Shown one piece after another: positions 6,876-62,382 of a stretch of 64,000 nucleotides of DNA. The DNA is from Octopus vulgaris. Lineage: Eukaryota. The notes beneath the pieces are model-generated. The model did no database searches and was not told where the DNA came from. It was given only the letters and a program-made list of their open reading frames with translations. The translations under genes were made by a program, and so were the position numbers. The number at the start of each line of letters is the position of its first letter. The stretch's first letter is position 1. The stretch spans positions 62,310,001-62,374,000 of the forward strand of contig OX597827.1 in NCBI GenBank assembly GCA_951406725.2. The letters run 5' to 3'.

Positions 6876-6934
6876 TGCACCTGATGAATATATATTTGAG
6901 GCATTTCTCAACACATGAAACTATTAGTAGCACA
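6876..6934 (+). ncRNA. Degenerate hammerhead-like motif
   Basis: CTGATGA (6881-6887), partial stem II (ttgag...ctcaa), GAAA (6917-6920), CTA-T-TAG, TA; helix I out of register. Confidence 0.4.
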
Positions 6935-7020
6935 TAAAAAAAAGCGTTGTATCTATTAAGTAATATTTATCAGATGGAGTACTCTTTTTGTTGATCTTAC
7001 CATCACAAAACAGTGTACTA

Positions 7021-7453
7021 TCTATTATATAACATCCGTTCTGTCTGTCAGTGTGTGTGTGTGTGTCTTCTAGAATCTCAGGCATCCTCCATCTGATTGC
7101 GCTCAAATTTGATATGTAGACACAGACGGTATCAGGGCATATATAAGTCTTGAAAAAAATTACAAAAATCGATTCCAGGTGAGAACGCGATCGATAAAGT
7201 CGTGGGACCATGCATTTGTACGCGCAAGTACAACAGCTGTTGCGATCGATATTACGCATACGCGAGAAAGATGCACGTGCAGTTTGCGCAAAAAAAGCCG
7301 GCCTGTTGGTGTCTCAAATTTAGCTTGAATCAGTGTTTCTCAAAGAGGAGGCCTATGGGACGGTTGAACAAGTTGTTTTGAGAAAATTTGATTTAAATGT
7401 TTGACAACTCAGCACCGTCAATTGGACGGTGAGGGGGGGGAGCGTTTTGCTCG
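7021..7453 (+). mobile_element. Non-autonomous Helitron-like element (degenerate)
   Basis: A|TCTATTATATAA start followed by (TCTG)/(GT) microsatellite; ends CTCG|T (CTAG-like); architecture parallels the cleaner copy at 53933-54320. Confidence 0.5.
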
Positions 7454-7474
7454 TATATATATATACTTTCATTT

Positions 7475-7680
7475 TTCTTATTTGTTTACACGTTTCAGTT
7501 ATTTGACTGCGGCCATGTTGGAGCATCGCCTTATAGGATGTTAGTCGAAGAAATCGACACCAGGACTTATTCTATGTAAGCCTAGTGCTTATTCTATCGG
7601 TCTCTTTTGCCGAACCGCTATGTTACGGTTGACATAAACGCACGCACCACCATCAGTTGACAAAGCAATGGCGGAAGAGA
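7475..7680 (-). mobile_element. SINE family A, 3' part
   Basis: tttcagttatttgactgcggccatgttggagcatcgcc...ttattctatcggtctcttttgccgaaccgcta matches other copies. Confidence 0.8.
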
Positions 7681-7759
7681 AACACACACACACACACACA
7701 CACACACACTCACATACACACACACACATAATTTTTTTTCAGAATGAGATAAAAAAACA

Positions 7760-7942
7760 AGGCTATAAGACCTATTTATGAATGTTGTAAACTCTTCACA
7801 GCCTTGGTATTTTTTAACTCATTCTGAAAAAAAAATCATATATACACATGCTGATATATGGCCTACGTTGGACTCCTTCTTCGGTGATCACCGAACCTGG
7901 AGCTTAACTATGGTCTATCCATAGCACATACTCAGCATTACT
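7760..7942 (+). repeat. Short interspersed repeat, probable PLE terminal (pLTR) family; also at about 37590-37825 and 48340-48580
   Basis: Shared cagccttg...tatacacacgctga...tcaccgaacctggaacttaactatggtctatctgtagcac; the 48 kb copy carries an HHR-like motif. Confidence 0.6.
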
Positions 7943-7950
7943 ATCTATCT

Positions 7951-8296
7951 GAAATTTAAAACAGAGGGTTACCTACTTGCAAACAAATGTGGTAACATGT
8001 AACAATATTGACCGAGGTTGCCGTGGTCTTTCCGTAGGCTTTTCTTCCCACGGATAAACCTTACCTGCTTCCCCCTTTACACTTTACATCAAGATACTGT
8101 GATACACGATCCCTATTGATCGTTTTTTTTCTTTGTTTCTTTTCTTTTTTTTTTCTTCTTCTTCTCCTTTCCTTTTACGATCCCTTTTGATCGAAAACCT
8201 ATCCCACCTTTTTATCTTCTTTCCCCCAAAAGAAAAGCTCTACTTTGTAATCTGTCCCGTCCGTGTGCAGCCCTGTGTGGCTAATAAAGAAACATA
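7951..8296 (+). mobile_element. 3' end of a non-LTR retrotransposon (family also at about 13945-14165 minus and 54727-55205)
   Basis: Three 5'-truncated copies share the 3' end ...tgtgcagccctgtgtggctaataaagaaac; flanked by (TATC)n here. Confidence 0.7.
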
Positions 8297-9109
8297 TCTA
8301 TGTCTATCTATCTATCTATCTATCTATCTATCTATCTATTATCTACTATCTATCTATCTATCTATCTATCTAATCTATCTTCTGTCTGTCTGTCTATCTA
8401 TCTATCTATCTATCTATCTATCTATCTATCTATCTATCTATCTATCTATCTATCTATCTATCTATCTATCTATTTGTCTCTCTGTCTGTCTGTATTCCGT
8501 ATATATGTATGTTGTAAACACACATGTACATACACACACATGTACATACACACACACATACATACATACATACATACATACATGCATGCATACATACATA
8601 GATACATATATATATATATATATATATATATATATTGTGTGTGCATGTATGTTTGCAATATACATATATACATATATATATATATGTATATGTAAGTATG
8701 TATATATATGTATGTATACGTACATACATACATATATATATATATATATATTAACACATATATGTATATTAACACAATATACATATATGTATATATGTAT
8801 ATTGCAAACACACATACTCTCTCTCTCACATATACATACACACCACATACACACATAAACGCGCGCGCACACACACGTACACGCACACGCTAATACATGC
8901 ACATAGCGAATTTACCTGTAGGGCAGTTCTGATTTGGTAACTTGATAATCCAATATGATATTCAAAAGGATTCTTATCTTCAGAAATTAACATTTCAAAT
9001 TCAGAACCCAATTTAGAAGCATCGAGACATACACTAGTCTCTTACAGGTAACTCGAGCAAGAATGTTGCAATAAAAATACCTTATAATTAGAGTATTCCC
9101 CCTGTATAA

Positions 9110-59945: not shown

Positions 59946-59970
59946 AATAATATATTTATATGTATATATA

Positions 59971-60217
59971 CGAGGGAGGGTCAAATATTATACGCACTCT
60001 TGTTTCTTGCAATGTATTTACGCAAAAGCAGGGGATAAAAAAGTATGTCATTTTTCTATACTCTCCTTCCCTTTCAATGAAATTGGTCCAACGGTCCACA
60101 AGCTTGTATATTCGCTGCAATAAGAAGGTTTTCGGTTAGTCGCGCAACCATTTATGCCCCTCTTCCTTCACATCTTCATCCGTAGGAAATCGACTGACTC
60201 GTAAACCATCTTTGAAC
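59971..60217 (-). mobile_element. mariner 3' end with TIR
   Basis: Minus strand FKDGLR..RFPTDEDVKE...KWLR...IYKLVDRW...IEREGEYIEK; TIR ta|cgagggagggtcaaatatt. Confidence 0.85.
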
Positions 60218-60239
60218 ATTTTAATAAACTATTTTTCTT

Positions 60240-60671
60240 TTATCTTTCTTCCAACCTCACTTGTGCCATGTAATTTGTGGAAAGGAAAAATTAGAAACAT
60301 TTTCTAACCACATGTTTCTATATGTTTGCCCAACGAAATTCGGCGAACATTGGTATTCCGGATTTGTTGTCTGTGGACTCGTGCACATTGCGATAAGTCA
60401 TTCCCTATCTCGCTTATATATAGTTCCTCGCAATTCAGGCATTTAATGCAGTAGATCAAATTTCTGCTTTTGAAGTTCATATCTGCATTTACGAAAGTCT
60501 GTCCATTTTTCGTTCTAATAGATCTACCAGTATGCATGTATTGACCCGTTCCACAACTGTTATCATTACACTTGGATACTGTGAATGTGTTATCCTGTTC
60601 ATATGGTTGATTAGTTATCATTTAAAACAATTTTCATTTTATTTTAGGATTGGCAAATTTGTTTTGATGAT
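60240..60671 (-). mobile_element. PLE fragment: Cys-linker and GIY-YIG endonuclease
   Basis: KCNDNSCGTGQY...SRNLIYCIKCLNCEELYISEIG...RVHRQQIR...HIETCG..FLIFPF. Confidence 0.85.
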
Positions 60672-61209
60672 GTTAAAAATGTGAGGTATACTTGCCATCT
60701 GAATATGGCTAACCACTAAGGGTGGGTGTTACTGTAGCTTGTAGCCCCAGGAGAACATCGTCTCCAGCTAGCTTTAGGCACACTTTCTGTGCCCTTATGG
60801 TATTCTGTGCCCTTATGGTATTTGCAAAGGGAGGTCACCCTTCCCTCGTCAACCTAAGTGATACGCACGGACTGCAGTTTCTAGGTTTTGACCTGTCATC
60901 AGCGTACGACAATCAGCGGTTTTCGATGAGAAGGTGTTCCAATGCAAATCCTTATATCGTTTTTCCAGTAACTTTTCGTCACTGATCTCGAAAAACTGTA
61001 TGCGAGCAATAATATATCTCTGAACAAGATATAAACAGTAACTGCACGACAATGTGAGGTATATTTGCCATCTCAATATGGCTAACCACTAAGGGTAGGT
61101 GTTACTGTAGCTTGTAGCCCCAGGAGAACATCGTCTCCAGCTGGCTTTAGGCACACTTTCTGTGCCCTTATGGTATTTCCAAAGGGAGGTCACCCTTCCC
61201 TCGTCATCC
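60672..61209 (-). mobile_element. Candidate non-LTR retrozyme: about 355-bp unit, about 1.4 copies, 12-bp TSD
   Basis: 60678-60851 repeated at 61051-61206 (first copy has an 18-bp internal duplication); tgttttgatgat at 60660-60671 and 61210-61221. Confidence 0.78.
60865..60907 (-). ncRNA. Minimal type-I hammerhead ribozyme motif (canonical core)
   Basis: Minus strand gtacg-CTGATGA-cagg(tcaaaa)ccta-GAAA-ctgcag-TC-cgtgc; one mismatch at the base of helix II. Confidence 0.8.
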
Positions 61210-61221
61210 TGTTTTGATGAT

Positions 61222-61601
61222 ACCGTTTCTTGATAAAATGGTAATTAAAAGCAACACCACAATCACAGCTGATATTTATTACAAAAGCACAGATACACAC
61301 TAGTATCTACATTTCAAATCATGCCACCCAACACTCATAACGCAACATCCTGTACTGTCTCGCCAGGAAAATTCGTACTATAATAGAAGACCCAAATACC
61401 AGGGACACAAGAGTTATCGAACTCAAAGTATTTCTGCTGAAGCAAAATTACCCTCTTCTACTTATAGAATATAGCATACAACGAGCAAAGGAGATACCTA
61501 TAGGACAATTAAGGGCAACACGAAAAAGACGAACCCATCAACGGAACACAATACCATTTCTAGTAACACACAATCCGCATATCCGCATCACCAAAACAAA
61601 T
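61222..61601 (+). mobile_element. PLE fragment: RT C-terminal region
   Basis: PFLDKMVIKSNTTITADIYYKSTDTH*YLHFKSCHP...IIEDPNTRDTRVIELKVFLLKQNYPLLLIEYSIQRAKEIP. Confidence 0.85.
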
Positions 61602-62297
61602 GTAACCGATAAAATAAGTACTAGGCTTCAAAAGAATAAGCCCTATCGTCAAATTCTTCGACTAAAAAATCCCTTTAAGGTCGCGCTCCAGCACTACCCC
61701 ATCAAATGACAGCAACAAGGAAAAGAGTAAAAGAATAAACATACACACACACACACACACACACACACATATATATATGTATGTATCCGTATATATCTAT
61801 ATACATTGGTGTCTGTCTGAATATGTATGCATATATATATATATATATATATATATATATATATATATATATTATATGTATATATATATATATGTATGTA
61901 TGTATGTATGTATATATATATATATATATATATATATATATATATATATGTATATTTATATGTATATATATATATATATATATATATATATATATAGGTA
62001 TGTATGTATGTATATATATATATATATATATATATATATATATTAATACAACTTTGGGATTTTACCAATAGGACCACAACTTCGATTTCAGGACAACCTT
62101 ATTTACTGGAGTACACTTAGAAAATTATATCCAAAATACTAATCTAATAATATAAGCATTTTAAAGCCTACTATAATATACAATAAGAATACAATACATT
62201 AGAGTTAATTATAAATTATTTAAACATATTTTTAAAATATATATATATATATACCTTACCTGTTATTAGTCTGTGGGGAAAGAAGATAATATTAACC

Positions 62298-62382
62298 AAC
62301 GCTACACGTGTTTCAGCGCTGGTGGTTTATTTTACCAGGCTGTACCTAATACATAAATCCACCAGTGCATCCTCAGGCTATT
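62298..62382 (-). ncRNA. Hammerhead motif with long helix II
   Basis: Minus strand tagc-CTGAGGA-tgcactggtgg...ccaccagcgct-GAAA-cacgtg-TA-gc; helix I short. Confidence 0.6.

Follow-up and report, generated by a model that had tools for sequence, protein, structure and literature searches.

Type I hammerhead motifs and a recurrent U4C core change in probable retroelement remnants of a 64-kb window of the Octopus vulgaris genome

The window, a 64-kb stretch of Octopus vulgaris DNA analysed at its full length, contains approximately 18 hammerhead-ribozyme-shaped motifs (Table 1). Core 1 is canonical at eight of the 18 loci, carries U4C at five, U3-A8 at three, and A6U at two. We interpret the motifs as type I hammerheads left behind by 3′ pseudo-LTRs of Penelope-like elements (PLEs) and by their non-autonomous retrozyme satellites, with U4C inherited and tolerated, and assign this reading a probability of about 0.5. 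U4C recurs beyond the prediction of neutral decay and was probably inherited from source elements.

An initial annotation had proposed about ten hammerheads in the window, and the sequences it described are present at 12 of 12 coordinates. Seven of these loci are near-intact type I motifs (26047, 31172, 32330, 38424, 41784 with its mirror at 40110, 60865, and 62298), four are broken but real (23955, with helix II lost, 42118, 48343, and 59739), and one is a mis-parsed half-core. The latter, at 6876, is identified by its homologue at 51308–51370, which shows that the true GAAA segment and helix III are deleted. The motifs are enriched over shuffled sequence, and six further loci were found, by scans (12167, 48708, and 55561) and by homology or eye (51308, 59411, and 32931). 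The complete type I design (three helices, CUGANGA, GAAA, UH, and an open helix I) is present with a canonical core at 12167, 48708, 60864, and 62298, and with a U3-A8 core at 26043 and 55561. The 41784 motif deviates from it by the extra A, the U4C and A6U loci deviate by one base, and the design is lost at 6876, 23954, 59411, and 59737. The four strictly intact loci correspond to ~60 per Mb, a value that describes one window and is not to be extrapolated; the density is high beside the published totals of about 9,000 hammerheads in Xenopus tropicalis and 5,000 in mussel. The initial label was minimal hammerheads, a term for motifs that lack helix III and loop 3 or retain just CG; of the 18 loci it suits 38424, 42118, and 32931 alone. 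Helix III of most motifs has 2–4 bp. Recurrence of U4C was noted correctly, whereas U3-A8 occurs three times rather than twice and 38424 has A6U.

Table 1 Hammerhead motifs and associated elements in the 64-kb window.
Feature	Coordinates	Strand	Details
Half-core remnant	6876–6935	+	CUGAUGA kept; aligned to 51205–51490 (−); in neither anchored scan
Canonical type I hammerhead	12167–12214	+	Helix I 6 bp, helix II 4 bp, helix III 10-nt palindrome
Canonical core, helix II broken	23954–24002	−	Helices I and III kept; helix I/III-anchored scan
U3-A8 hammerhead	26043–26088	−	150-bp insert between (TA)n runs (25989–26138); both anchored scans
U4C hammerhead	31172–31234	−	Long helix II; helix III 4 bp with 1 nt; 234-bp insert between (TA)n runs
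Retrozyme-like element	32164–32627	−	363-nt unit and 101-nt repeat
U4C type I hammerhead	32330–32374	−	Otherwise intact: helix I 6 bp, helix II 4 bp, helix III 8-nt palindrome, C17
Decayed homologue of 38424	32931–32968	+	A6U in common; 75% identity over 158 nt; found by alignment
Minimal hammerhead, A6U	38424–38459	−	Core CUGUCGA; both anchored scans
Inverted PLE insertion, young	40024–41910		877-nt arms 40024–40900 and 41034–41910, 100% complementary
C-terminal GIY-YIG endonuclease remnant of PLE	40868–41149	+	Pfam GIY-YIG match short of the curated cutoff (E = 0.0027)
U3-A8 hammerhead	41784–41824	+	One extra A in GAAA segment; mirror 40110–40150 (−)
Minimal hammerhead, U4C	42118–42152	−	Helix II mismatch, helix III change; passed neither scan
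U4C hammerhead	48343–48390	+	Cleavage-site region decayed; helix II-anchored scan
Canonical-core hammerhead	48708–48785	+	Long loop II; ~110 bp from (TA)n run; both anchored scans
Canonical-core hammerhead, homologue of 6876	51308–51370	−	By eye; narrowly failed scans
U3-A8 hammerhead (third)	55561–55618	+	Long helix II; 384-bp segment between (TA)n runs
Decayed tandem, unit 1	59411–59455	+	Core 1 canonical; helix I and GAAA broken
Decayed tandem, unit 2	59737–59796	+	U4C; helix II broken, the other two helices intact
Retrozyme-like element	60672–61209	−	373-nt unit and partial repeat
Canonical-core type I hammerhead	60864–60908	−	10.1-11.1 mismatch; both anchored scans
Canonical-core hammerhead	62296–62384	−	~15-bp helix II; U10.1-U11.1 mismatch, helix I bulged; fold z −2.64

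A strict descriptor (canonical or U3-A8 core) has five matches including the mirror copy, where 20 local dinucleotide shuffles average 0.1. The helix I/III-anchored scan, which requires GAAA, a palindromic helix III, and helix I and reads core 1 only afterwards, yields ten matches with at most one core-1 mismatch, against 0.75 per shuffle (maximum 4, n = 100), and with a stricter helix I eight against 0.16 (maximum 2). Anchoring on helix II results in 12 matches against 3.3 per shuffle (maximum 7, n = 60), of which CCGANGA accounts for three against 0.033. The dinucleotide-shuffle control proposed with the initial annotation is exceeded by tightly anchored scans; loosely relaxed ones are noisy (8 against 3.55, with 8 reached in one of 20 shuffles, and 16 against 8.6). 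The scan parameters were chosen after the loci had been seen. The palindromic helix III and the location among (AT)n described at the outset were both recovered: helix III, read by eye, forms a full or near palindrome in 11 of the 12 helix II-anchored matches, with palindromy not demanded, and eight of 12 loci sit between (TA)4+ runs that are no more than 500 bp apart, compared with 21% of random complex positions (P ~0.001), an association somewhat inflated by short TA runs within elements.

As had been anticipated, library searches miss the motifs. None of the 4227 Rfam families, the hammerhead models included, has a match at gathering score in the window, and even the canonical 12167 motif is unmatched; the 150 listed of 524 Rfam E-value matches include no hammerhead and are dominated by microsatellite matches to miRNA models. 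Folds of isolated motifs have z above −2 in 13 of 15 cases and are mostly no better than those of shuffles. ARAGORN detected no tRNAs in the window, and repeat finding yielded mainly microsatellites, the inverted arms being the exception. A census relying on literal CUGANGA would miss seven of the 18 loci, or ten if U3-A8 were disallowed.

The PLE insertion at 40–42 kb provides the element context of the 41784 motif. The GIY-YIG remnant (Atlas GIY-YIG 0.94) is 52% identical over 64 residues to protein P0002, in which a cysteine-bearing linker precedes the GIY-YIG domain and appears Neptune-like by eye; the elements in the window are short remnants only. The endonuclease query against protein collections had one match among 13 candidates. 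The 41784 motif lies ~635 nt 3′ of the remnant on the same strand, in the position of a PLE pseudo-LTR, and the tandem or inverted truncated structure and microsatellite target of such pseudo-LTRs are likewise present. A link to Naiad was sought by a motif search of the covered portion of the PMC8557442 supplement, outside which the 3′ end of Naiad_Obim lies, and nothing was found. The initial attribution to PLE-type hammerheads was right; it left out that several loci resemble retrozymes, being partial tandems that carry an ordinary type I design, and are not minimal PLE termini.

The predicted fold of the 32164 unit is a long rod that carries the hammerhead at one tip (z −10.75, 0 of 100 shuffles). 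Between the repeats that flank this unit there are 2 differences in 101 nt, and the U4C copy at 32330 is young. Homology (0 of 200 shuffles) links the unit to that at 60678, which belongs to an element flanked by a 12-bp target duplication (60660–60671 and 61210–61221) and has a circular fold with z of −3.3 to −3.5; ten control stretches range from −1.44 to 0.75. Both the 32164 and 60672 elements combine the traits of non-LTR retrozymes: a strongly self-paired unit of 150–450 bp, a type I hammerhead, and a GC content under 50% (0.44). The resemblance is weaker for the 12002 element, an ~338-nt partial tandem (12002–12395) that encloses the 12167 motif and has a 57-nt repeat and a unit fold of z −2.7, and it is lacking for 23954 and the 59216 unit. 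The 23954 unit has a fold z of 0.23 and no significant homology to other units, and a grouping of 23954 and 12167 with the 32330/60864 family, suggested by eye, is unsupported by the unit homology comparison. Each retrozyme-like element has one hammerhead. The sole two-motif tandem, 59411/59737, is broken; its first unit reads CUGA and its second CCGA, a difference that may have arisen in either direction. The 48343 motif has truncated homologues without core 1 at 37592 and 7772, and the 42118 motif is a distant relative of the 38424 family.

The mutation spectrum of SINE copies defines the neutral expectation, according to which T>C at U4 makes up 6.7% of single core-1 changes. In the anchored scans, which handled all single core-1 changes alike, U4C represents four of five such changes (P = 1e-4; 0.003 after post-hoc correction for any one type), and five of six with 42118 added. 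The U4C loci may share descent: with the three CCGAUGAAG loci counted as one, the corrected P is 0.024 for three of four and 0.2 for two of three. Three of the five U4C copies bear other lesions. CpG decay was rejected as a confounder, as C>T in SINE copies is 0.082 in CpG and 0.076 outside, which indicates no CpG hypermutability. The chance of a post-insertion T>C at U4 of 32330 is 0.4–0.8%, and because this copy is young its U4C was probably inherited. Open frames over the 42118 motif, compared with protein collections for position 4, had no candidate (one repetitive match of 40% identity was left unused); stray copies of the elements numbered 0 and 0 in two GTDB scans, and none matched among plasmids. 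The initial claim that U4C exceeds decay holds, and its extension to an attenuated, lineage-typical core was a conjecture.

We hypothesize that the hammerheads of source RNAs would cut tandem transcripts and probably act as dimers joined through the palindromic helix III; dimer cleavage of this kind and circular RNA intermediates are taken from the literature. The elements may be mobilised by PLE RT/EN, U4C would be carried by families, and these particular motifs may cleave. U4C likely recurs by inheritance, as the one single core change that still leaves some cleavage. A viroid is known to tolerate U4C, so a tolerance filter accounts for the change, needs no selection for attenuation, and is simpler than selection for slow cleavage. 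Against this reading, A6U is common to two copies of another family (38424 and 32931) and is unexplained by tolerance of U4C; its sharing hints at relaxed catalysis. The difference at position 4 within the 59411/59737 tandem also weighs against it, as do the possible shared descent of the U4C loci, the other lesions in three U4C copies, the uniform CUGA of the File S2 consensuses, and the poor folds of isolated motifs. A bolder version, which we consider rather unlikely, holds that PLEs and retrozymes of the Octopus type repeatedly fixed non-canonical cores that still work, if slowly: U4C in at least three designs and A6U in a single family. In this version, ~40% of the hammerheads of the genome would escape CUGANGA descriptors, the genome would be among the densest in hammerheads known, and the 363-nt U4C unit would be expressed as circular RNA.

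It is unlikely that U4C and A6U were inherited in dead ribozymes, with the families retrotransposing without cleavage and the core drifting. The shared A6U and the occurrence of U4C instead in a related family would fit such drift, as would the extra A of the young 41784 copy, the poor in vitro cleavage of PLE minimal hammerheads, and Naiad PLEs, which thrive without canonical hammerheads according to PMC8557442. Free drift would, however, scatter changes over six positions, whereas besides the compensatory U3-A8 only U4C and A6U are observed, and 32330 retains its helices and rod fold. Copy-specific neutral decay combined with small-sample ascertainment is quite improbable, since it predicts 6.7% where four of five were found in scans treating single changes equally, and 32330 is young and otherwise intact. 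In its favour are the polymorphic tandem, the visible decay of 42118, 48343, and 59737, the number of informative loci (only five to six), and the published consensuses, all CUGA. We also doubt a version built on the initial annotation, in which selection would favour U4C as an attenuating change that lets longer-than-unit transcripts survive as templates. U4C lowers the rate, PLEs need more-than-unit templates, and the excess spans distinct designs (retrozyme, long helix II, and minimal); yet the related 60864 unit retains CUGA, the core is canonical at eight of 18 loci, and the window data do not separate tolerated from favoured.

Coleoid cephalopods exhibit heavy RNA editing, and U4C could stem from a mutational bias, either of the RT or through A-to-I editing that acts on the antisense strand when transcripts fold back. 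Sense U>C equals antisense A>G, and long perfect inverted arms are present; nevertheless, this origin is very unlikely, as an A>G core change is absent from every locus judged real and C>T is above T>C in SINE copies. Chance matches in AT-rich repetitive DNA, suggested by the many shuffle matches of loose descriptors, the lack of Rfam matches, and the mis-parsed 6876, are hardly credible and are refuted for the motif set by the anchored and strict counts, the unselected palindromes, and the consistent retroelement context, so that chance could apply only to single weak loci.

The core changes that active families tolerate are a direct readout of whether selection acts on cleavage. The young, intact 32164 element with U4C and its canonical relative 60672 form a ready pair for kinetics. 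PMC8557442 describes the role of hammerheads in PLEs as an open question.

The viroid U4C variant of Ambros and Flores (1998), as cited in PMC3088659 and PMC4075628, has the identical core change, with in vitro activity lowered and infectivity kept; it is slower in vitro and functional enough in vivo. It is a single variant, whereas in the window U4C is a recurring state of animal retroelement motifs. In favour of tolerance, none of 50 plaques had a U4 mutation when MS2 was selected against a hammerhead (PMC4075628); against it, every single mutant of the CUGA turn is low in activity in pairwise mutagenesis (PMC9901934). Passages of PMC10886601, PMC3907566, PMC3884650, and PMC6155905 contain nothing on U4C.

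According to Cervera and de la Pena (2014, PMC4209133), PLE pseudo-LTR hammerheads, which are minimal or have a small helix III, share with the window motifs the type I topology, palindromic helix III, a nucleotide inserted after A9, truncated and mostly solitary copies, occurrence in inverted pairs, and the U3-A8 variant (about 1,300 in Schistosoma). As a difference, the window motifs mostly have a helix III of 2–4 bp. U4C is absent from the passages of that paper examined, and four CCGA strings had no match in its supplement text other than file 1. The hammerheads of Hydra-clade and Neptune PLEs in Craig et al. (2021, PMC8557442) resemble those of the window in (TA)n targeting and the 10.1-11.1 mismatch, and the Hydra-clade ones of File S2 also in a 3–4 bp helix III with a 1–2 nt loop; helix III of 31172 is identical in letters to that of Penelope-3_HM. 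The inverted 5′-truncated partner layout at 40024 is that of the Fig. 2 legend. One Octopus family, Hydra-1_Obim, appears in that material, and five of six window motifs are unmatched in its supplement, the sixth matching within an unrelated coding stretch. All 34 rows of consensus hammerheads in File S2, which were collected with a canonical descriptor, have CUGA, unlike the U4C loci of the window.

Metazoan non-LTR retrozymes (Cervera and de la Pena 2020, PMC7229834; bioRxiv 10.64898/2026.07.22.740005), described in two works that do not mention octopus, have repeats of 150–450 bp with a type I hammerhead, like the window elements, and also share with them a GC content under 50%, a long target duplication, and a strongly self-paired unit. 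The self-paired units of mussel retrozymes have 350–390 bp (PMC7229834), and those in the window have 363 and 373 nt. In contrast to known retrozymes, the window elements are partial tandems of 1.2–1.4 units with one hammerhead each, in one case with U4C.

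The hammerhead-shaped motifs of the window are a real feature of known kinds: hammerheads of Penelope-like elements (PLEs) and of retrozymes, small non-autonomous satellites. The sequences of all twelve loci in the initial annotation are present at their positions, and Rfam models at gathering score detect no hammerheads in the window. Descriptors, fixed after the loci were known, were applied to the whole window and to 200-nt local dinucleotide shuffles. The strict core gives 5 matches against 0.1 per shuffle (20 shuffles). With one core change permitted the counts are 8 and 3.55, or 5 and 0.8 if a palindrome is demanded as well, and with two changes 16 and 8.6 (8 shuffles); loose scans by themselves are insufficient to reveal the excess. 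Fixing the second core segment (GAAA), a palindromic helix III and helix I, with the first segment (core 1, canonically CUGANGA) read out later, yields 59 anchors, ten of which have at most one core-1 mismatch (0.75 per shuffle, maximum 4, 100 shuffles). A scan anchored on helix II returns 23 candidates, and a loose helix I filter leaves 12 of them, versus 3.3 (maximum 7, 60 shuffles). In eleven of the 12, helix III forms a perfect or near palindrome, though no such requirement was set; one match, 35995, appears to be due to chance. The dinucleotide-shuffled control called for initially thus shows the excess to be real in the anchored and strict scans.

The hammerhead assignment holds for seven of the twelve loci, which are near-intact; four are broken and 6876 is a half-core. 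The parse proposed for 6876 draws on a later GAAAC, and the GAAA and helix III kept in its homologue (51308-51370) are gone from it. Of 18 motifs, 8 have a canonical core 1, 3 have U3-A8, 5 have U4C (CCGANGA) and 2 have A6U; the annotated four to five U4C cores agree with this count, and the two U3-A8 cores were one too few. The label "minimal" fits only 3/18 motifs in the sense given in the available text of PMC4209133. Placement in short inserts within (AT)n is borne out for 8/12 loci, which lie in segments of ≤500 bp between (TA)n runs, as do 21% of random complex positions. At 6236-6262 (+), very little separates CUGAUGA from the GAAA after it, and the flanks are complementary over a short length; this may be a hammerhead whose helix II has been lost.

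Hammerhead-shaped motifs (named by start position), retrozyme-like elements and PLE protein remnants of the window
Feature	Position	Strand	Remark
Near-intact annotated loci	26047, 31172, 32330, 38424, 41784, 60865, 62298		41784 with mirror
Broken annotated loci	23955, 42118, 48343, 59739		
Added motifs	12167, 48708, 55561		from scans
Added motifs	51308, 59411, 32931		from homology or by eye
Retrozyme-like element	32164-32627	-	363-nt unit + 101 nt
Retrozyme-like element	60672-61209	-	373-nt unit, 12-bp target duplication
GIY-YIG endonuclease end of PLE	40868-41149		remnant, matches PLE protein P0002
PLE RT C-terminal piece	near 61220		matches P0002, E 1e-7
PLE thumb-like piece	near 1050-1500	+	reading of translation only

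The window is AT-rich and crowded with microsatellites and SINE copies. Head-to-tail SINE-like arrays with a 184-186 bp unit occupy 9289-10092 (4.4 copies) and 18831-19477 (3.5 copies); their units are 95-96% alike, and such arrays are unusual for a SINE. Decayed Tc1/mariner-like transposase pieces (~2000-2880, 5090-5800, 12800-13950, 23230-23620, 36070-36380) and the 3'-terminal part of a LINE-like ORF with (AAT)n downstream (~16420-16900, +) were recognized by eye. The repeats look unmethylated, from a CpG observed/expected ratio of 0.87 over the whole window and SINE copies without CpG hypermutability. Broken PLE RT C-terminal/thumb remnants lie at 1050-1500 (+) and 61220-61600 (+); a Pfam search of the former, thumb-like piece gave no match.

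The 41784 hammerhead and the GIY-YIG remnant upstream of it share a strand, and the hammerhead sits within 877-nt arms of 100% complementarity, the inverted layout reported for PLEs in the accessible part of PMC8557442. These perfect arms surround the remnant at 40024-41910 and reflect either very recent insertion of a PLE or an artefact of assembly; the hammerhead has one extra A in GAAA. Six motifs (26043, 31172, 38424, 42118, 55561, 62298) occupy short fragments at (TA)n sites and probably belong to PLEs, because they resemble the tabulated hammerheads of (TA)n-targeting Hydra PLEs in short helix III and 10.1-11.1 mismatch (PMC8557442). Termini and tail sequences in common appear to join several (TA)n inserts (26445-26835, 31137-31370, 39930-40030, 42230-42394) into related PLE families.

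U4C recurs more often than local decay predicts. The mutation spectrum of 26 SINE copies (41 matches, one kept per cluster), with T>C at 0.044 per site, C>T at 0.076 and no CpG effect, gives an expected U4C share of 6.7% among single core-1 changes. Of the five scan-found real loci with a single change, four carry U4C (31172, 32330, 48343, 59737) and one carries A6U. P for this excess is 1e-4, or 0.003 if recurrence of any single type counts; with 42118 added the share is 5/6, and merging related loci weakens the signal (3/4, P 0.024; 2/3, P 0.2). Because the 32330 copy is young (flanking repeats differ at 2/101 nt), the chance of post-insertion decay at its U4 site is 0.4-0.8%; gene conversion or RT error in that single event is a possible source of its U4C. 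Against inherited U4C, one tandem holds both CUGA (59411) and CCGA (59737); the CUGA unit is more damaged, so the change may have gone either way. A6U is common to two copies 75% identical, 38424-38459 (-) and 32931-32968 (+), which suggests inheritance of at least one non-canonical core. A third copy of this family, near 32671-32732 (-), is without the hammerhead segment.

The simplest reading of the recurrence is tolerance of the variant, since U4C is a natural viroid variant with a lower in vitro rate and retained infectivity (Ambros and Flores 1998, as cited in PMC3088659) and U4 was mutated in 0/50 plaques of MS2 escaping a hammerhead (PMC4075628), despite a mutagenesis screen in which every CUGA single mutant was low in activity (PMC9901934). 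Selection of U4C for attenuation, proposed initially, is possible but unsupported. In the available text of the mostly open-access literature searched (Repbase/Dfam outside its scope), we found neither a description of U4C from animal retroelements nor one of cephalopod retrozymes, and only PMC3088659 combined hammerhead ribozyme with U4C. The U4C bias is thus an unreported pattern, statistically supported but unproven.

Weak palindromic helices III let two hammerheads of one tandem transcript pair into an active dimer (available portions of PMC4209133, PMC7229834). Cleavage by such dimers would excise unit RNAs, which may circularise and then be copied by PLE RT/EN; a 2026 preprint, in the part available, argues for a PLE origin of retrozymes (bioRxiv 10.64898/2026.07.22.740005). 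Cofolding, run without a control and hence weak, favours dimers by 2-17 kcal/mol in 15/15 motifs tried. Most loci, single copies in microsatellites, are probably inert remnants.

The two retrozyme-like elements are homologous (0/200 shuffles as good) and fold far better than their shuffles, with z of -10.75 (32164) and about -3.4 (60672), against -1.44 to 0.75 in 10 control stretches. A weaker case is 12002-12395 (z -2.7), and the 23954 and 59216 units fold no better than chance in the shuffle comparison. The 363-nt unit at 32164-32526 (-) forms a viroid-like rod (z about -10.8) with the hammerhead at its tip, and is the strongest candidate for expression as a circular RNA. Mussel retrozymes, as described in the available part of PMC7229834, are 350-390 bp long and expressed as circles; the units here measure 363 and 373 nt.
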